From: an uncultured Eubacteriales bacterium
GTDB lineage: Bacteria; Bacillota_I; Bacilli_A; RFN20; CAG-826
Assembly: GCA_963652335.1 (NCBI GenBank)
Contig: CAVJSS010000001.1
Span: 60 to 64,059, forward strand
Direction: 5' to 3'
Length of the DNA stretch: 64,000 bases
Shown here: piece after piece, positions 1,053 to 48,165 of the stretch
Position numbering within the stretch: position 1 is the stretch's first letter
How the letters are laid out: each line of letters opens with the position of its first letter
Position numbers and translations under genes: made by a program
Notes under the pieces: generated by a model
Told to the model about the DNA's origin: nothing
Database searches by the model: none
What the model saw: the letters and a program-made list of their open reading frames with translations, nothing else

Positions 1053-1544
1053 TTATATTCTGTTTTTGTCGCCTTTTTGGCATATATGGATGTCGTTGCC
1101 GTATAACAGCCTTTTTTCGCTTACGCTTAGCTTTTTTGAAAATTCGGATCTATCTATCGCTATTTTCCCTTCTTTTATGGCTTTGATGACCAAGATTCTT
1201 TCCAAAGGAGAAAATTGATAGAAAACGTCGATCAGATCAACTTTCAGTTTGCCGTTTATTATCTTATCGACGATGTATTTGCGGTTATGGCCTTTGAATA
1301 TATTGCTTTCATCGATAACGATTTCTCCTTCGCTTAAGCATAGAAGGTCATCTATCGGGACTGAAAGCAATTTGGAAAGCTCGATTATCAAGTCGACGCT
1401 TGGCAAAGAATAGCCATGTTCCCATTTCGAAATGACTTGGCGAGTAACCATCAGCTCATTGGCCAAATCATCCTGGGTTAAGGATTTTTCTTTCCTTAAC
1501 GCTTTGATCTTTTTTCCAACTTCAATCGAATCGATCATAGCCAC
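1053..1544 (-). CDS. XRE-family helix-turn-helix transcriptional regulator with an uncharacterised C-terminal domain
   Basis: 163-aa ORF with an AGGAG RBS. It has an N-terminal HTH_3 signature (IKALRKEKSLTQDDLANELMVTRQVISKWEHG). The C-terminal ~90 aa includes one PF-like repeat (FYQFSPLERILVIKAI) resembling the repeats of the downstream protein. Confidence 0.85.
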   Translation of the reverse strand: MAMIDSIEVGKKIKALRKEKSLTQDDLANELMVTRQVISKWEHGYSLPSVDLIIELSKLLSVPIDDLLCLSEGEIVIDESNIFKGHNRKYIVDKIINGKLKVDLIDVFYQFSPLERILVIKAIKEGKIAIDRSEFSKKLSVSEKRLLYGNDIHICQKGDKNRI

Positions 1545-1583
1545 TCCTTACGACTATAGTGTATGCTTCTTTCAAAGATTGGC

Positions 1584-1602
1584 ACGCAACCAAATGTTGC
1601 GT
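1584..1602. promoter_or_regulatory. Palindromic candidate operator ACGCAAC-N5-GTTGCGT upstream of the XRE gene
   Basis: Perfect 7-bp inverted arms were read directly from the sequence, 40-58 nt upstream of the XRE start codon at 1544. Confidence 0.4.
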
Positions 1603-1691
1603 TTTCTAGTAAAACAACAAACCTTATTTGATTTTGCAATAATTTGATATCGTCGATGATTTTGATTATGGATTTCTAAATTGAATAAAAA

Positions 1692-1794
1692 TTATACCCT
1701 CAAAGGTATATTATTGATGAAATGTTATCCTTTTATACCCTAAAAGGTGCAATTTAGATAATCTCTTATTGTTTTATACCCTCAAAGGTATATT
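1692..1794 (+). promoter_or_regulatory. Three phased HipB-type operators (TATACC-N6-GGTATA) overlapping the hipB promoter
   Basis: A 21-nt perfect direct repeat TTATACCCTCAAAGGTATATT occurs at 1692-1712 and 1774-1794, with a degenerate copy TATACCCTAAAAGGTGCA at 1734-1751. Each copy is an inverted repeat. The start-to-start spacing is 41 bp twice. The third copy overlaps a TATATT -10 (1789-1794), with a TTATTG -35 (1766-1771) and a 17-nt spacer. Confidence 0.6.
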
Positions 1795-1818
1795 TTATTT
1801 ATAAAGGACAATTCAAGC

Positions 1819-2025
1819 ATGAATCCAATCGCAGAATATATCAAAAAGAGTAGAAAAGAAGTTGGGCTGACCCAAGAAGAATTTGCCATCCGTTCTGGTT
1901 TAGGACTTCGCTTCGTTCGTGAATTAGAACGAGGAAAGCCTACTGTCAGGATGGATAAAGTGAACATCGCTTTAAATATGTTTGGTATGGAAGCGGGCCC
2001 AATCAAGAAAGTTAATGACAAATGA
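1819..2025 (+). CDS. hipB: HipB-like XRE HTH protein (DNA-binding component of the Hip toxin-antitoxin module)
   Basis: 68-aa ORF with an HTH_3 motif (IKKSRKEVGLTQEEFAIRSGLGLRFVRELERGK). Its stop overlaps the next start in an ATGA. Confidence 0.8.
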   Translation: MNPIAEYIKKSRKEVGLTQEEFAIRSGLGLRFVRELERGKPTVRMDKVNIALNMFGMEAGPIKKVNDK

Positions 2026-2351
2026 AATCATTTAGGACGGCTTATGTTTATGTAAGAGATATTTATGCCGGAATCCTTAAAGAAACGGAAACGGGCTATG
2101 GTTTTGCCTATGATCATGAATATCTCGATAGAAAGGACGCAAGCCCAGTGTCTTTGACTTTGCCATTGTCAAAGGAAGAATATCAATCTAGCGTGTTGTT
2201 TCCGTTTTTTGACGGACTTATTCCGGAAGGATGGCTTTTGGATGTCGTGAATAGAAATTGGAAATTGGATCCGAACGATCGTTTCGGAATCCTTATGGTT
2301 TCGTGTAAGGATTGCATAGGCAACGTCAGCGTTTCGGAGAAAAAATTATGA
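2022..2351 (+). CDS. hipS: HipS-like protein (stand-alone HipA N-terminal subdomain)
   Basis: 109-aa ORF. It aligns by eye to the E. coli HipA N-terminus (PVSLTLPL ... LFPFFDGLIPEG versus PLSLSLPL ... VFNFFDNLLPDS). ATGA overlaps link it to both neighbours. Confidence 0.75.
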   Translation: MKSFRTAYVYVRDIYAGILKETETGYGFAYDHEYLDRKDASPVSLTLPLSKEEYQSSVLFPFFDGLIPEGWLLDVVNRNWKLDPNDRFGILMVSCKDCIGNVSVSEKKL

Positions 2352-3298
2352 TTCGTTGTTTATGCTGCGGCAAGTCATTAAGAAATGGAGAATCAAACGG
2401 TTGGCACGAATCATGCATAAAAAGATTCTTCGGATCGAAAGTGATTCCTGAGATTAATTTGGGTGAAGGTGCCTTGGAATCATTCGCATTGCAAAACGTT
2501 CGTCAAGGCCTTACGGTGCCTGGCGTGCAGAAAAAAATGTCTTTGCTTTTAAATAGCGATGGAAAACATAATAAGCTCACTTTGGTTGGCTACCCAACTG
2601 GATATATTTTGAAACCGCAAGCGGAAGAATACGATTCGCTTCCGGAATTGGAATGGGTTGGCATGAAAATGGCTGACTATGCAGGAATAGCGACGGTCGC
2701 TAACGCCTTGATATCCATAAATGATAAATATGCGTATATCTCAAAACGAATTGATCGGGTTTTTGAGAAAAATTACGTGAAAAAGCTTGCGATGGAAGAT
2801 TTTTGCCAACTCGATTCTAGAATGACGAGCGACAAATATCACGGATCATATGAAAGATGTGCGAAAATCATTCAGAGGCATTCGTCGCGTTCTGGCCTTG
2901 ATTTGGCCGAATTGTTCATGCGTGTCGTCTTCTCTTATATTATCGGAAATTCGGATATGCATCTTAAAAATCTATCCCTGATCGAAACGGAATTCGGAAG
3001 TGGGTTATATGTCCTATCGCCTGCTTATGATTTGTTTCCTGTCAGCGTTGTTTTGCCTGAAGATGAAGATGAATTCGCCCTTACGGTCAACGGAAAAAGG
3101 AATAATGTCACCAAAAACGATTTGTATGTCTTTGGCAGCCGCTGCGGATTGAGCAAAATCGCCTGTCAAAAAATGATAAAGAAACTTCTTTCTTTGGAAG
3201 ATGGGCTTATCGACATTGTCGAAAACTCCGTCTTAAAGGATGAATTGAAAAGCGATTTAGCGAAAGTGATAAAAGGAAGGTGTTCTGCGCTTTCTTAA
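2348..3298 (+). CDS. hipT: HipT-like Ser/Thr kinase toxin (HipA_C core) with an N-terminal Cys/His cluster
   Basis: 316 aa counted from the ATG at 2348 (the ORF track starts earlier, at 2312). It has a Gly-rich loop VPGVQKKMS, a catalytic loop IGNSDMHLKNLS and a Mg-binding region SPAYDLFP. The N-terminus is MIRCLCCGK..NGWHESC. Confidence 0.8.
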   Translation: MIRCLCCGKSLRNGESNGWHESCIKRFFGSKVIPEINLGEGALESFALQNVRQGLTVPGVQKKMSLLLNSDGKHNKLTLVGYPTGYILKPQAEEYDSLPELEWVGMKMADYAGIATVANALISINDKYAYISKRIDRVFEKNYVKKLAMEDFCQLDSRMTSDKYHGSYERCAKIIQRHSSRSGLDLAELFMRVVFSYIIGNSDMHLKNLSLIETEFGSGLYVLSPAYDLFPVSVVLPEDEDEFALTVNGKRNNVTKNDLYVFGSRCGLSKIACQKMIKKLLSLEDGLIDIVENSVLKDELKSDLAKVIKGRCSALS

Positions 3299-3344
3299 GA
3301 TGACATAAATGAGAGGAGTTTTTTACTATCTGCAAAGAGGATGG

Positions 3345-4742
3345 CTAAGCAGTTTGGCTTTGCTTGCTCCTTTTTTCGATAGGATAGCCGCATTTTTTCT
3401 TCCATCTTCCGATAAAGAACATGGCAATCGAAATACACATCCCAACACCCCATCCGATAGGCCAAGCGAAGAATATCCCTTCATATCCGAAATATTTGCC
3501 CAAGATCAAAGCGGCGATGACCCTACACGCCAAATCAACCGAAGTCCCTAACGTGAATCCAAGCATGTCTTTGGCGCCTTTCAATATCCCGTCGAGCGGT
3601 ATTTTGACTACCATGAAGATGAAGAAAGGAACGATGCAGAGGATAAACAGTTTGCCTGAATTTATTATCACGTCGATGTCGCCTTCTGCTCCATCGCTCA
3701 AAAACAAGCGGACCCAGAATTCCCTAAAAGGCAAAATAGCCGCCATCGCTATGACGCAAAACGCAGCTGAGATGATCAAGGCGGAATAATACCCTTTCAT
3801 GATCCTATCGTATTTTTTAGCTCCGACGTTTTGGGAAACGTAATTGGACAAGGCATTGCACAAAACGGTGAAGATGTTGATGGCTATATAGCAGATCTTG
3901 TAGCTTGCGCTATATCCTCCAGCGACGCTGTTCCCACCTATTCTGGTTAAAATCGAAGTGATAAGAACGCCGCCTATCGAAATGAAACATCCTTGAAGTA
4001 TCGATGGGGCAGCCACGCCCAAAATCGATTTGAAGATGTTTTTGTCAAATAATTCGCATTTTTCCGCCTCGAATTTCTTTATGCATCCAAAAAGGACGAC
4101 GACCGATAAGATGCCGGCGATGGCTTCGGATATGATGGTGCCCAGAGCAAGGCCGGCGCTATTCATTTTTATCGGCATTACGAACAATATGTCCAATCCT
4201 ATGTTCAGCAAGGTAGAGAATATAAGGAAGTACAACGGGGTCCTGGAATTTCCAAAAGCCTGGAACATATACATCGAATAATTGTATAAAAAGAGGGATA
4301 TGACGCCTCCGATATAGATATACATATAGGATTTGGCTTCGTCTAGGCATCCCTCGCCTTTATCTTGGCCGATCATCGCATTGAGCAAAGGGGAAATGAT
4401 CGCAAAACCGATTGCCGTCACGACCAAAGCCAAAACGATGGTGGATATCAATCCGACGGTGGCCGTCTTTTTTAGGTTCTTCATGTCCTTGGCACCGAAA
4501 TAAGCGGCTCCGATGACCCCACATCCAACCCCGAAGCCAACGGCGATATCCAAAAACACAACCGTGATTGGATAAACGATGCCAACGGCATTGAAACTAT
4601 CCAAATTGGAAATGAAGTGTCCGGCTATGAAATTGTCCGCAAGGTTATAGAGCTGTTGCAAGGTGGCAGACAATATCAAAGGGATGGAAAACAGCAAGAT
4701 TATTTTAAACGGGTTGCCGACCGTCATGTCTTTAGATTTCAT
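3345..4742 (-). CDS. MATE-family efflux transporter
   Basis: 465-aa polytopic membrane protein. It has the typical MATE N-terminus (GNPFKIILLFSIPLILSATLQQLYNLAD) and about 12 hydrophobic segments. Confidence 0.85.
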   Translation of the reverse strand: MKSKDMTVGNPFKIILLFSIPLILSATLQQLYNLADNFIAGHFISNLDSFNAVGIVYPITVVFLDIAVGFGVGCGVIGAAYFGAKDMKNLKKTATVGLISTIVLALVVTAIGFAIISPLLNAMIGQDKGEGCLDEAKSYMYIYIGGVISLFLYNYSMYMFQAFGNSRTPLYFLIFSTLLNIGLDILFVMPIKMNSAGLALGTIISEAIAGILSVVVLFGCIKKFEAEKCELFDKNIFKSILGVAAPSILQGCFISIGGVLITSILTRIGGNSVAGGYSASYKICYIAINIFTVLCNALSNYVSQNVGAKKYDRIMKGYYSALIISAAFCVIAMAAILPFREFWVRLFLSDGAEGDIDVIINSGKLFILCIVPFFIFMVVKIPLDGILKGAKDMLGFTLGTSVDLACRVIAALILGKYFGYEGIFFAWPIGWGVGMCISIAMFFIGRWKKKCGYPIEKRSKQSQTA

Positions 4743-5053: not shown

Positions 5054-6481
5054 ATGAACGCAGACATCAATTACCTTGCCATTCTAAAAGAAGGGCCCAA
5101 CATCGAATTAAAAGAAGCGACGAATAAAGTGCCTGATAGTTTTTACGAAACATATTCGGCTTTTTGCAATACCGATGGCGGAACCATCTATTTGGGCATA
5201 AAAGAAGGAAAAAAGAATAAAATCTTAGGGGTTAGCAATCCCATTGAGCAAAAAAAGAACATAATCGCAGCACTGCATTCTAGAGAAAAAGTCAGTTATT
5301 GTGCGTTATCGGAAAAAAACGTGAGAATCCTTTCCGTGGGCGACAAAAACATAATGCAGATAGATATTCCTGAGGCTCCGAAAGAAGTTAAGCCCGTTTA
5401 CATAAAAGGCAATCTTTCATTAAGCTATGAAAGAGCCGGTGGCGGCGATTTCAAGTTAAACGAAGATTCGATAACGAGAATGCTCATCGATCGAAGACAA
5501 ACTCATTTCGATAGCGTTCCGAATGTTTTGGATTTGGATTTTTCTAGAGTTGATGCAGATACATTGAAAAAATATCGCACATACTTAAACGAAATATCGC
5601 CAAACAATATCTTTTCGAGACTGTCGGATCACGACTTTTTGCTAAGAATCGGAGCTTTGAAAACCAAAGAAGATGGCAAAGAGGTATTAAGCAACGGAGC
5701 GGTGCTCTTTTTCGGCCAAATCACCGACATCATGCAAATATCTCCAAATTTCTTTTTGGACTATAGGGAGAAAATAACGAACTACTCGAGGTGGGATTAT
5801 CGGATAGTTTCCGATGACATTTCCTTAAATTGCAATCTATACAATTTCTTCGAGATCGTTTCGGAACGTTTATTGATGAATGTTCCTAATCCGTTCAAAA
5901 CCAACGGCATCTCGAATTTGAACGGAACAGATTTGAAACGCTCGATCATTGAAGGATTGGCCAATGCCATTTCGAACAACGATTATTTGTCTACGCCTGG
6001 GATATGCATAGAAAAAACCGCTAATTCCATTTGCATAACCAATTCAGGAGATGTCCCGACCGGAATCGAGCAAGCAAAAAAAGGCGGCATAAGCGAGCCG
6101 AGGAATTCCAATATAATGAATTATTTAAGAATAATACAGGTTACCGACCGTGCCGGAACCGGCATCCCGAACATCTTCGACGTTTTCGCTTCCTATCAAT
6201 TTCCGACTCCTGGGTTTTTCGTTTTGAAGAACCCATTAAGAACTCGACTTTCCTTAAACTTTTTGCAATTGCCTTCAAATACACGCTATCGCCAAGAAAA
6301 GCTCGATATCTTAGCTTATCTCGAAAGCCGTCCTGAAGGCGTATCATCGGTAGAAATCTCCAAATTGATAAATAAGAAGAGCACCATCACCAATCAAATA
6401 TTGAACGAATTATTGCTAATCGATCTGATTTCGACAAACGGGATGAAAACAAAAGGCAAAAAATTCATGAAGAATTCATAG
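5054..6481 (+). CDS. Schlafen/AlbA_2 divergent-AAA domain protein with a RecG-C-like HATPase_c_4 region and a C-terminal winged HTH (putative regulator)
   Basis: 475 aa. AlbA_2 signature: EGPNIELKEATNKVPDSFYETYSAFCNTDGGTIYLGI. HATPase_c_4-like signature: SEPRNSNIMNYLRIIQVTDRAGTGIPNIF. C-terminal wHTH-like segment: ILAYLESRPEGVSSVEISKLINKKSTITNQILNELL. Confidence 0.7.
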   Translation: MNADINYLAILKEGPNIELKEATNKVPDSFYETYSAFCNTDGGTIYLGIKEGKKNKILGVSNPIEQKKNIIAALHSREKVSYCALSEKNVRILSVGDKNIMQIDIPEAPKEVKPVYIKGNLSLSYERAGGGDFKLNEDSITRMLIDRRQTHFDSVPNVLDLDFSRVDADTLKKYRTYLNEISPNNIFSRLSDHDFLLRIGALKTKEDGKEVLSNGAVLFFGQITDIMQISPNFFLDYREKITNYSRWDYRIVSDDISLNCNLYNFFEIVSERLLMNVPNPFKTNGISNLNGTDLKRSIIEGLANAISNNDYLSTPGICIEKTANSICITNSGDVPTGIEQAKKGGISEPRNSNIMNYLRIIQVTDRAGTGIPNIFDVFASYQFPTPGFFVLKNPLRTRLSLNFLQLPSNTRYRQEKLDILAYLESRPEGVSSVEISKLINKKSTITNQILNELLLIDLISTNGMKTKGKKFMKNS

Positions 6482-40150: not shown

Positions 40151-40319
40151 AGTTCGCTTCAGGGAGACGTTAGAATCGTCGACTGGCGGTAAAGTCCGCG
40201 AGCCTATAATGGCACGAACTGGTGAGATTCCAGTACCAACGGTAAAGTCCGGATGGAAGAAGCGTTGCATCAATCCTATTTCGGTTGATTGTTCGCCCCT
40301 GCAGCAAGGGGGTATTTTT
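40151..40319 (+). promoter_or_regulatory. FMN riboswitch (RFN element) with an SD-sequestering/terminator-like hairpin
   Basis: Conserved RFN segments are present: CUUCAGGG, GGCGGUAAAGUCCGCGAGCC, GGUGAGAUUCCAGUACCAACGGUAAAGUCCGGAUGGAAGAAGCG. P1 pairs CGCUUC (40155-40160) with GAAGCG (40259-40264). A CCCCU/AGGGG hairpin (40296-40311) covers the AGGGGG SD ahead of the ATG at 40320. Confidence 0.85.
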
Positions 40320-47838: not shown

Positions 47839-48165
47839 CCGGCCCAGGCGACTGCTGCTAGAAAATCTAGTAGAGGAAAGTCCATGCTCGCACAGCCTGT
47901 GATGGCTGTAGTGATTGCGCTAGACGAATAAATAAGTCTAGGCACGCGGGAGCGCGTGACGGCGGAAGAATACCTCTCGTAGGTAGGATGCCCTAAGGTG
48001 CCACAGAGACGAGCTTGCTAGCGATAGCAAGATGAAACGCGGTAAACCCCTCAAGCGAGAAACCCAAAATTGGTAGGGGAAGGATCGATGCCAAAACGAA
48101 GGCAGAGGTCCCAGCAAAGCTGAGATAAATTGTCGCCCTAGACAAAACATGGCTTATCGGGCCGG
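47839..48165 (+). ncRNA. rnpB: RNase P RNA (bacterial, compact type-B-like)
   Basis: Universal P4 strands GAGGAAAGUCC (47873-47883) and ACAUGGCUUA (48147-48156), plus GGUAAACCCC. P1 pairs CCGGCCC with GGGCCGG, and P2 pairs AGGCGAC with GUCGCCU. Length is about 327 nt. Confidence 0.9.

Follow-up and report, generated by a model that had tools for sequence, protein, structure and literature searches.

What kind of Hip module is encoded by the three overlapping genes that follow an array of palindromes in this DNA, and which of the gene products would restrain the kinase? We report that positions 1693-3298 of the window (the whole 64-kb stretch of DNA that was analysed) very probably constitute a self-contained chromosomal hipB-hipS-hipT toxin-antitoxin operon of the Legionella-like (HipBST-Lp) clade, with HipB as the proposed autorepressor and HipS as the proposed neutraliser of the kinase, a mechanism drawn from sequence comparison and from analogy with characterised systems. 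The locus is an ordinary but intact HipBST operon in an uncultured Firmicute, i.e. a confident annotation and no discovery. Our contribution is modest and lies at the level of the family, namely a likely zinc knuckle in HipT and an operator/promoter layout that recurs across phyla.

The genes hipB (1819-2025), hipS (2022-2351) and hipT (2348-3298) are adjacent, overlapping and co-oriented on the forward strand, and encode a 68-aa XRE-family HTH protein (predicted operator-binding autorepressor), a 109-aa homologue of HipA N-subdomain 1 (predicted antitoxin) and a 316-aa HipA-core Ser/Thr kinase (predicted toxin), respectively. As stated in the initial annotation, the genes are joined by ATGA overlaps, which can be read directly from the sequence at hipB/hipS (2022-2025) and hipS/hipT (2348-2351); 4-bp overlaps are also present in the Legionella pneumophila operon (PMC9325769). 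A Shine-Dalgarno-like AAAGGA (1803-1808, forward strand) can be discerned 10 nt 5' of the hipB ATG. The mechanically generated list of open reading frames starts hipT at TTG 2312, and this start was dropped; since all homologues are 315-317 aa long and begin with M-x(1-2)-C-x-C-C, the true start is ATG 2348.

Domain matches to HTH_3, Couple_hipA and HipA_C confirmed the identities originally suggested for the three products. The reading of the locus as a split-HipA HipBST module was likewise upheld by these matches, by best sequence matches to Legionella counterparts of solved structure for all three products, by a fold search and by the conserved B-S-T order. It is not a canonical HipBA module: two products, of 109 aa and 316 aa, take the place of a single-chain HipA (~440 aa), and HipB lacks a C-terminal Trp. 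The closest characterised relative is L. pneumophila HipBST (Lpg2368-2370; PDB 7vkb, 7vkc, 7wcf, 8ezr-8ezt), which provides the top solved-structure match for all three proteins, while E. coli O127:H6 HipBST (PDB 7ab3-7ab5), with the same tripartite order, is more distant. Specifically, HipT matches its Legionella counterpart, HipT(Lp), with an E-value of 4.8e-35 (5.8e-58 by profile) vs 9e-15 for E. coli O127, HipS with 1.2e-20 vs 2.4e-11, and HipB matches HipB(Lp) and gave no match to E. coli O127. The similarity has its limits, as the HipT identity is only ~30% to Legionella and ~20% to E. coli O127. No second hip-like copy was found within the 64-kb window.

Relatives are encoded in at least 581 species genomes, among Clostridia, Bacteroidales, Treponema and Mollicutes, and approximately 76 of 80 related loci from several phyla have the B-S-T order with small overlaps. 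The impression that this kind of low-GC lineage has no characterised example is correct as far as characterisation goes, but homologues of the clade in Lachnospira, Treponema and Bacteroidota have already been catalogued bioinformatically (PMC10653801, Table S6); in the part of Gerdes 2021 Table S1 that was accessible, a peptide-string search did not recover family members. Flanking genes differ between the related loci, as one would expect of a mobile cassette, and hence the operon does not belong to a larger conserved system. Matches on plasmids are at most 40% identical, so the subfamily is not obviously plasmid-borne. Within the window, the gene for a divergently transcribed 163-aa XRE regulator (1053-1544) shares a 274-bp intergenic region with hipB, and a separate palindrome (1584-1602) is located closer to the regulator gene. 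Moreover, an AlbA_2/Schlafen-type protein (5054-6481) is encoded nearby, together with a second XRE cassette, which gives the region an island-like look.

Part of this picture would also fit a main role in abortive-infection phage defence instead of persistence or plasmid/genome stabilisation, with infection triggering the release of HipT and with the same biochemistry. In its favour are the island-like surroundings with the AlbA_2/Schlafen-type neighbour and the second XRE cassette, the patchy cross-phylum distribution, the non-conserved flanks, and matches of HipT and HipS to PDC-M03A/B, a candidate defence system in PADLOC (1.1e-5 and 3.9e-5, respectively). However, these PADLOC matches are weak, a search of 50,697 phage records detected no relative and no known defence gene accompanies the module consistently, and we regard phage defence as an unlikely main role. 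It is a statement about biological role and is compatible with the proposed HipBST mechanism.

As judged from alignments, HipT keeps all the catalytic motifs of HipA-family kinases; it is a HipA core without N-subdomain 1 in which the Gly-rich loop and the catalytic and Mg-binding motifs are intact. The domain search gave HipA_C with an E-value of 3e-42, and an AF2 model (pLDDT 78.6, pTM 0.83) has HipT(Lp) as its top Foldseek match (TM 0.81-0.82 to 7vkc/7wcf). The Gly-rich loop with its preceding Thr, T56-V-P-G-V-Q-K-K (2513-2536), is well conserved among homologues (T56, V57 and P58 at least 90%; G59-K63 invariant). T56 is directly ahead of the loop, aligns with Ser54 of HipT(Lp) and is the predicted autophosphorylation site; the corresponding T[IV][TP] motif class has been described (PMC10627512). 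A single Ser/Thr in this place is shared with HipT(Lp), where the motif is S-V-Q vs T-V-P here, while E. coli O127 HipT has two phosphoserines (S-I-S). The catalytic motif G200-N-S-D203-M-H-L-K207-N208 (2945-2971) is invariant in the homologue alignment and corresponds to GNEDMHLKN in HipT(Lp), and the Mg-binding motif S-P-A-Y-D228-L (3017-3034), with A226, Y227 and D228 invariant, aligns with SPAYDL. E. coli K-12 HipA shares the kinase fold and the catalytic motifs, but it is a single 440-aa chain and matches at only ~1e-5.

By analogy with the characterised systems, loss of HipS would allow HipT to phosphorylate an essential protein and cause growth arrest, with a target that is probably in translation, and autophosphorylation of T56 may modulate the kinase. 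The kinases of E. coli O127 and of the proteobacterial HipBST-Ec clade, to which the Haemophilus influenzae system belongs (PMC6581861), target TrpS, and K-12 HipA targets GltX. HipT(Lp), the nearest characterised kinase, targets neither of the two (PMC10653801), which makes TrpS and GltX poor default candidates; the target here is probably a different protein. For HipT(Lp), PheS has been a candidate. A HipBST module from a gut Firmicute could provide a second system in which to seek the kinase target of the clade.

The initial annotation had singled out a Cys/His cluster (CLCCGK...WHESC) at the start of the kinase as distinctive and possibly zinc-binding. The cluster exists (C4, C6, C7, H20 and C23; 2357-2416, forward strand), but it belongs to the family and not to this locus in particular: the CCHC cap is kept in 119 of 120 close HipT homologues, in 105 of 110 full-length short 50%-cluster representatives and in 12 of the 18 that are fused. 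The set of zinc ligands can also be narrowed, as C4, C7, H20 and C23 are the likely ones while conservation of C6 does not extend beyond the close subfamily. The four conserved residues form a C-x2-C...H-x2-C pattern in a short structured segment (pLDDT 77-88 in the AF2 model), with H20 and C23 at the start of a helix (21-28), and we predict that they bind one Zn ion and stabilise a mini-domain of ~40 residues ahead of the Gly-rich loop. K-12 HipA has no such mini-domain. That of E. coli O127 HipT aligns with residues 2-40 here, and the paper on the E. coli structure describes it as "of unknown significance". The ligands have been lost in both characterised HipTs, entirely in E. coli O127 (NCRILLTPL...GYSTQGL) and three of four in Legionella (MKHCPITYEK...NYSQRGL). 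Searches with the cap alone (N-terminal 52-67 residues) gave no meaningful match in Pfam (E up to 10) or among PDB sequences; no named family covers the cap, and none of its solved homologues has kept the ligands. We found no description of the motif in the literature on HipA/HipT and zinc, of which our coverage is incomplete. That most family members carry a CCHC motif which is absent from the characterised proteins should be useful to those working on Hip kinases.

The knuckle could be a redox or metal switch and not a mere structural staple, such that Cys oxidation or loss of Zn would unfold the mini-domain and alter the binding of HipS or ATP. We consider this decidedly improbable. Were it true, toxin activation would be tied to exposure to oxygen or oxidants, and most hosts of the clade are gut anaerobes; such a switch would so far have gone unseen because the ligands were lost from both HipTs that have been studied, the Legionella and the E. 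coli O127 kinase.

Turning to the antitoxin, the earlier suggestion that the 109-aa protein matches only HipA's N-terminal subdomain proved accurate: it matches Couple_hipA (1.6e-25, covering 97 of 99 profile positions) and residues 20-103 of HipA (5e-6), as well as H. influenzae HipS (HI_0666, PDB 7czo; 1e-14), where the PEGW motif is kept. Hence a separate protein of ~100 aa is homologous to HipA N-subdomain 1, and by sequence comparison HipS is a free-standing version of this subdomain. Among 78 relatives, conservation of HipS residues 62-73 is 95% or higher. This stretch includes E69 and W71 (codon 2232-2234), which align with E63 and W65 of E. coli HipS, and neutralisation depends on W65 as an essential residue (PMC10627512). 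Of the six residues that HipT(Lp) requires for HipS binding (PMC9325769), five are kept in the aligned kinase (D133=D136, R134=R137, E144=E150, K157=K163 and K201=K207), whereas R154 is replaced by T160. We propose, by homology with the E. coli O127 and Legionella systems, that HipS docks on HipT beside the Gly-rich loop, with W71 and E69 locking the loop in a state that does not bind ATP, and that HipB would not neutralise the kinase directly. Legionella HipS has an Ile in place of Trp71, and therefore relatives differ in exactly how neutralisation works.

In the canonical HipBA system of E. coli K-12 HipB is the antitoxin, and the same could be assumed here, with HipS as no more than a subdomain that the kinase requires for activity and receives in trans. 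Relatives in the same clade in which Couple_hipA, the Cys motif and HipA_C are fused in one chain are in keeping with such an arrangement, since their existence indicates that the HipS-like and kinase parts can work as one polypeptide, and in K-12 HipA N-subdomain 1 belongs to the active toxin. Split and fused forms coexist in the clade, and in the former the chain is divided precisely at the junction of the HipS-like domain with the knuckle. However, in both characterised split systems HipS, and not HipB, neutralises the kinase (PMC6581861, PMC9325769, PMC10653801), the inhibitory HipS Trp is conserved, and HipB here is just 68 aa and has no counterpart of the C-terminal Trp used by K-12 HipB (PMC10627512). 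We therefore find it very improbable that HipB is the antitoxin.

In the preferred reading, with HipS as the antitoxin, HipB would act as a repressor only, as HipB does in E. coli O127:H6. It matches HTH_3 (4.4e-6) and TIGR03070 couple_hipB (2e-19), and its top solved-structure match is HipB(Lp) (8ezt, 4.4e-5), which is similarly small (~70 aa) while the E. coli O127 protein is longer and has an N-terminal extension. With 68-87% identity to relatives in other phyla HipB is the best conserved of the three proteins, in keeping with conserved operator half-sites. Upstream of this small HTH protein there is a three-site array. The 21-nt direct repeat noted earlier is confirmed (1692-1712 and 1774-1794 are identical), as is its degenerate middle copy, and three 41-nt units start at 1692, 1733 and 1774. 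Each unit contains an 18-bp 6-N6-6 palindrome: the distal operator (site 1; TATACCCTCAAAGGTATA, 1693-1710) and the promoter-proximal operator (TATACCCTCAAAGGTATA, 1775-1792) have no mismatch to TATACC-N6-GGTATA, and the middle operator (TATACCCTAAAAGGTGCA, 1734-1751), which starts 41 bp from either neighbour, has two, its right half-site being degenerate. In the 64-kb window there are seven such sites (at most two mismatches) vs 0.79 expected, and none of 100 shuffles reached seven.

The array had been presented as a distinctive feature. It is real, but it is family-wide, as a triple array with 40-42 bp spacing, including an equivalent of the distal operator, is present in 62 of 76 testable related loci. 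Moreover, 154 copies of the motif (at most one mismatch) were counted in 22 kb of hipB upstream sequence vs 0 in 443 kb elsewhere. These comparisons strongly support the prediction that the palindromes are HipB operators. That they instead serve the divergently transcribed 163-aa XRE regulator, or are a chance repeat, is extremely improbable. The palindromes do lie in the intergenic region shared by the two genes, but the same array is ahead of hipB in 62 loci of which only two have a regulator homologue, the motif is absent from the 443 kb outside hipB upstream regions, and a separate palindrome is located closer to the regulator gene.

With the palindromes as HipB operators, a HipB dimer would bind to each of them and block RNA polymerase at the proximal site, giving autorepression of the operon. 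The spacing of 40-42 bp corresponds to about four helical turns and all three operators are thus predicted to be on one face of the DNA, where neighbouring HipB2(HipST)2 complexes could pack side by side. HipB(Lp) binds to three 18-bp 6-N6-6 operators at even intervals, of which the proximal one overlaps the promoter (PMC10653801) and abuts the -10; the half-sites are TTACTG/CAGTAA vs TATACC/GGTATA here and the spacing is 71 bp vs 41 bp. The parallel previously drawn to E. coli hipBA is valid insofar as K-12 HipB is also an HTH autorepressor with several palindromic promoter operators (TATCC-N8-GGATA), but those are four in number with 5-nt half-sites, and the Legionella hipBST array is closer. 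The E. coli O127 promoter is without Legionella-type operators (PMC10653801).

The promoter elements were placed by alignment with 61 related loci, giving a weak inferred -35 hexamer, TTGTTT (1769-1774, forward strand; TTGACA in relatives), and a weak inferred -10 hexamer, TATTTT (1791-1796, forward strand); a consensus promoter scan (1500-3500) gave no site in 1690-1818. With these positions the proximal operator fills the -35/-10 spacer and its last two bases are the first two of the -10, and the original statement that the last repeat copy covers the -10 is borne out to this extent. The layout, i.e. a -35, a spacer-filling 18-bp operator, a -10 and two further operators at 40-42 bp, is kept in Clostridia, Bacteroidales, Spirochaetes and Mollicutes and provides a ready-made, testable model of autoregulation. 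Among the related loci a TTG[ACT] -35 motif is found at most 9 nt from the left edge of the proximal operator in 56 of 62, and TTGAca is seen beside this site and not beside the other two. Finally, the -10 varies in relatives, with TAAAAT (21 loci) and TATAAT (14 loci) followed by TAATAT (8 loci) and the TATTTT found here (3 loci).

The hipB (1819-2025), hipS (2022-2351) and hipT (2348-3298) genes, all on the plus strand, encode proteins of 68, 109 and 316 aa, respectively, and direct reading of the sequence bore out the coupling noted in the initial annotation, i.e. at both junctions (2022-2025 and 2348-2351) the upstream stop overlaps the next ATG in an ATGA. HipB matches Pfam HTH_3 (4.4e-6) and NCBIfam couple_hipB TIGR03070 (2e-19), HipS matches Couple_hipA (1.6e-25, 97 of 99 profile positions) and couple_hipA TIGR03071 (2e-30), and HipT matches HipA_C (3e-42). 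A mechanical ORF list started hipT at TTG 2312, which was rejected; we place the start at ATG 2348 because the close homologues are all 315-317 aa and begin M-x(1-2)-C-x-C-C. The window has a GC content of 43% and, since it carries a class B RNase P RNA (47840-48161, 243 bits) and an FMN riboswitch (40151-40268, 89 bits), it represents a Bacillota-type (Firmicute-type) chromosome; an identical hipBST locus is also present in the MAG GCA_963654045.1.

Comparison with all PDB sequences gave the Legionella pneumophila HipBST component as the top match for each of the three proteins. Specifically, HipT matches HipT(Lp) at 4.8e-35, followed by E. coli O127 HipT (9e-15) and E. coli K-12 HipA (~1e-5), HipS matches HipS(Lp) (1.2e-20), H. 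influenzae HI_0666 (1e-14), E. coli HipS (2.4e-11) and HipA residues 20-103 (5e-6), and HipB matches HipB(Lp) (4.4e-5). An AlphaFold2 model of HipT (20 homologues; pLDDT 78.6, pTM 0.83) was ranked by Foldseek closest to HipT(Lp) (7vkc and 7wcf; TM 0.81-0.82, full length), and then to E. coli HipT, HipA and CtkA. Hence, domain, PDB-sequence and fold matches support the proposed split module of the E. coli O127 and Legionella type, with the 109-aa protein corresponding to the N-terminal part of HipA.

In HipT the Gly-rich loop (V57-P-G-V-Q-K-K63), the RxDR motif (R134-I-D136-R137), the catalytic motif (G200-N-S-D203-M-H-L-K207-N208) and A226-Y-D228 are intact and invariant in the family. T56 aligns with Ser54 of HipT(Lp), the autophosphorylated residue, and the T-V-P motif fits the T[IV][TP] class previously described for HipT kinases (PMC10627512). 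Mutation of six HipT(Lp) residues impairs HipS binding (PMC9325769), and five of these are kept (D136, R137, E150, K163 and K207), whereas R154 is replaced by T160. Across 78 relatives, conservation of HipS residues 62-73 is at least 95%; W71 and E69 align with W65 and E63 of E. coli HipS, where W65 wedges in beside the Gly-rich loop and neutralisation fails without it (PMC10627512), whereas Legionella HipS has Ile in place of this Trp. HipB lacks a C-terminal Trp, unlike E. coli K-12 HipB, which by this residue reaches into HipA (PMC10627512).

We consider it highly probable that the locus operates as a HipBST toxin-antitoxin operon; the layout of the genes, the intactness of the catalytic motifs, the conserved residues of the HipS interface and the geometry of operators and promoter are observed directly. 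By homology, HipB dimers would repress at three sites and HipT would be neutralised by HipS, not HipB, through locking of its Gly-rich loop; once free, HipT, with T56 as putative autophosphorylation site, would phosphorylate an essential protein, leading to growth arrest. For HipT(Lp), toxicity is not rescued by TrpS or GltX, and PheS is an unconfirmed phosphoproteomic candidate (PMC10653801). A role in phage defence is a tentative possibility to which matches to PADLOC PDC-M03A/B (~1e-5) point, but no relative was found in a phage collection of 50,697 records. That HipB acts as the antitoxin is unlikely, as judged from the precedent of both studied split systems, which contradicts it. Overall, the sequence, fold and comparative evidence confirms the initial observation and supports its interpretation as a HipBST operon.

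Relatives are numerous: a search of 5.8 billion proteins gave 6,658 cluster representatives at E ≤1e-10 among 8,000 candidates scored, and, with each species represented by a single genome, at least 581 genomes encode one. Lachnospiraceae, Oscillospiraceae, other Clostridia, Treponema, Bacteroidaceae, Alistipes, Paludibacteraceae, Mollicutes and Izemoplasmatales are among the matches listed. HipBST-Lp homologues are known to be widespread outside Gammaproteobacteria (Lin et al. 2023, PMC10653801; its Table S6 names Lachnospira eligens, Treponema putidum, Prevotella and Capnocytophaga), and our literature search found no paper characterising a Firmicutes member. In essentially all of the 80 related loci that reach far enough, hipB and hipS precede hipT. 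The loci do not share flanking genes, and therefore the three genes, together with their promoter, move as a cassette. Identities to the window proteins (related loci L004-L083) are 68-87% for HipB, 55-76% for HipS and 52-65% for HipT, and by this measure HipB is the most conserved of the three across phyla. Usually it is the DNA-binding partner that diverges fastest, the opposite of what is seen here; the high conservation of HipB matches the near invariance of the operator half-sites. Taken by itself the locus is ordinary, and its worth may lie in two points of interest to specialists on the family, the operator/promoter architecture conserved across phyla and a CCHC knuckle missing from the model systems.

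Upstream of hipB, a repeat search identified three units of 41 nt that begin at 1692, 1733 and 1774, each with TATACC-N6-GGTATA; the distal (1693-1710) and proximal (1775-1792) operators are perfect and the middle one (1734-1751) has two mismatches. Allowing ≤2 mismatches, the window has seven sites (the other four scattered, with two mismatches each) compared to 0.79 expected, and none of 100 shuffles reached seven; thus the array described in the initial annotation is real and not due to chance. That the palindromes serve the divergent 163-aa XRE gene (1053-1544, minus strand) is excluded on comparative grounds, since its homologue is present in only two related loci.

For each locus, the 260-300 nt preceding hipB were scanned for the same pattern, and 62 of 76 loci have three sites with a start-to-start spacing of 40-42 bp, most commonly 41 and 41 (21 loci). 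With ≤1 mismatch the motif occurs 154 times in these 22 kb vs 0 in the other 443 kb of the loci, and the family consensus is TATACCCgATAGGGTATA. A conserved TTGAca precedes the proximal site only, ending one base before it, and the hexamer formed by the last two bases of this site and the four that follow is TAAAAT (21 loci), TATAAT (14) or TAATAT (8). The proximal operator therefore fills the spacer (17 bp) of a sigma-70-type promoter and extends into the -10, which by its sequence is the classic occlusion arrangement; on the same comparative basis, the array is a family feature that defines the promoter. In the window, alignment with these loci places the putative -35 at 1769-1774 (TTGTTT) and the -10 at 1791-1796 (TATTTT), so the earlier suggestion that the last copy covers the -10 was right in substance. 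A consensus promoter scan called no site upstream of hipB in the window because both hexamers are weak. In five loci (L062, L066, L067, L075 and L078) the proximal operator ends only 10 nt before the hipB start codon, which leaves the -10 ~7 nt from the ATG, and hence the hipB mRNA there is probably leaderless; in L010, L015, L021, L031, L038 and L081 the leaders are instead ~80-145 nt.

In Legionella, EMSA has demonstrated binding of HipB(Lp) to three 18-nt operators that are evenly spaced and contain 6-nt inverted repeats; the outer two are imperfect, and the proximal one overlaps the promoter (Lin et al., PMC10653801). These sites (TTACTG-CTATAA-CAGTAA, CTACCG-CCATAA-CAGTAA and TTACCG-CGATAA-CAGTAA) start 71 bp apart with TATATAAT after the proximal one, according to the oligonucleotide table of that study and a Legionella adelaidensis locus (L084). 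The 6-N6-6 geometry, the three copies, the proximal copy at the -10 and the presence of imperfect copies (middle or outer) are thus common to both, whereas the half-sites and the spacing (41 vs 71 bp) differ. The ~four helical turns between sites in the window are predicted to allow adjacent HipB2(HipST)2 complexes to sit on one DNA face. Two of the three operators in L084 (631-792, on a plasmid) have a central CGATA/CCATA spacer, the third having CTATA, and this spacer is shared with the family consensus TATACC-CGATAG-GGTATA despite the different half-sites; such sequence likeness could reflect shared ancestry or chance.

Of 120 close homologues, 119 carry a C4-x-C6-C7...H20-x2-C23 motif in the N-terminal HipT segment before the Gly-rich loop. 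When 1.84 billion 50%-identity representatives were searched with a profile, 520 matched at E ≤1e-30 and 3,348 at E ≤1e-10; among the best 150, which were examined, C-x2-C-x(8-22)-[H/C]-x2-[C/H] is present in 105 of 110 full-length short kinases, where it precedes the Gly-rich loop by ~55 residues, and in 12 of 18 fused kinases (roughly 390-540 aa, most ~440 aa). Five scanned fused (unsplit) cluster representatives (P0149, P0203, P0205, P0222 and P0250; 427-450 aa) have the order Couple_hipA, C-x2-C...H-x2-C, HipA_C, and hence this mini-domain is not restricted to split HipT; compared with them, the split systems divide the chain exactly in front of the knuckle. Since conservation of C6 is limited to the close subfamily, the ligand set is likely C4, C7, H20 and C23. 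The HipT model is confident for the segment (pLDDT 77-88), with H20 and C23 at the start of helix 21-28. In the two characterised kinases, the corresponding segments of E. coli (NCRILLTPL...GYSTQGLKRL) and Legionella (MKHCPITYEK...NYSQRGLHLL) keep, of these residues, only the first Cys. Searched alone, the segment matched no Pfam family and no PDB sequence, a term search of HipBST/Hip-family papers found no mention of zinc tied to HipT or HipA, and a title-and-abstract search for HipA and zinc gave no relevant paper. The cap is real and, as the initial annotation suggested, probably binds zinc, with one zinc ion predicted to stabilise the mini-domain, but it is the norm in this clade and not the distinctive feature it was taken for.

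Adjoining hipBST, a minus-strand two-gene pair (325-1544) encodes the 163-aa XRE protein and a 229-aa protein that is acidic, contains four PF(L/M/V)S-x-E/D-like repeats and matches nothing in Pfam, PHROG or PADLOC. The same pair lies beside hipBST in a Bacilli MAG (L055, 1082-1941) in opposite orientation (37% and 30% identity), and may constitute a separate small cassette. A perfect 7-bp inverted repeat, ACGCAAC-N5-GTTGCGT (1584-1602), which a scanner flagged as terminator-like, lies ~40 nt upstream of the XRE gene and is probably this regulator's own operator. Two genes downstream of hipBST, a 475-aa protein (5054-6481) has AlbA_2/Schlafen and HATPase_c_4 domains and matches a PHROG 'DNA helicase' family (1e-42) and, weakly, a pAgo-associated PADLOC model (1.9e-14).
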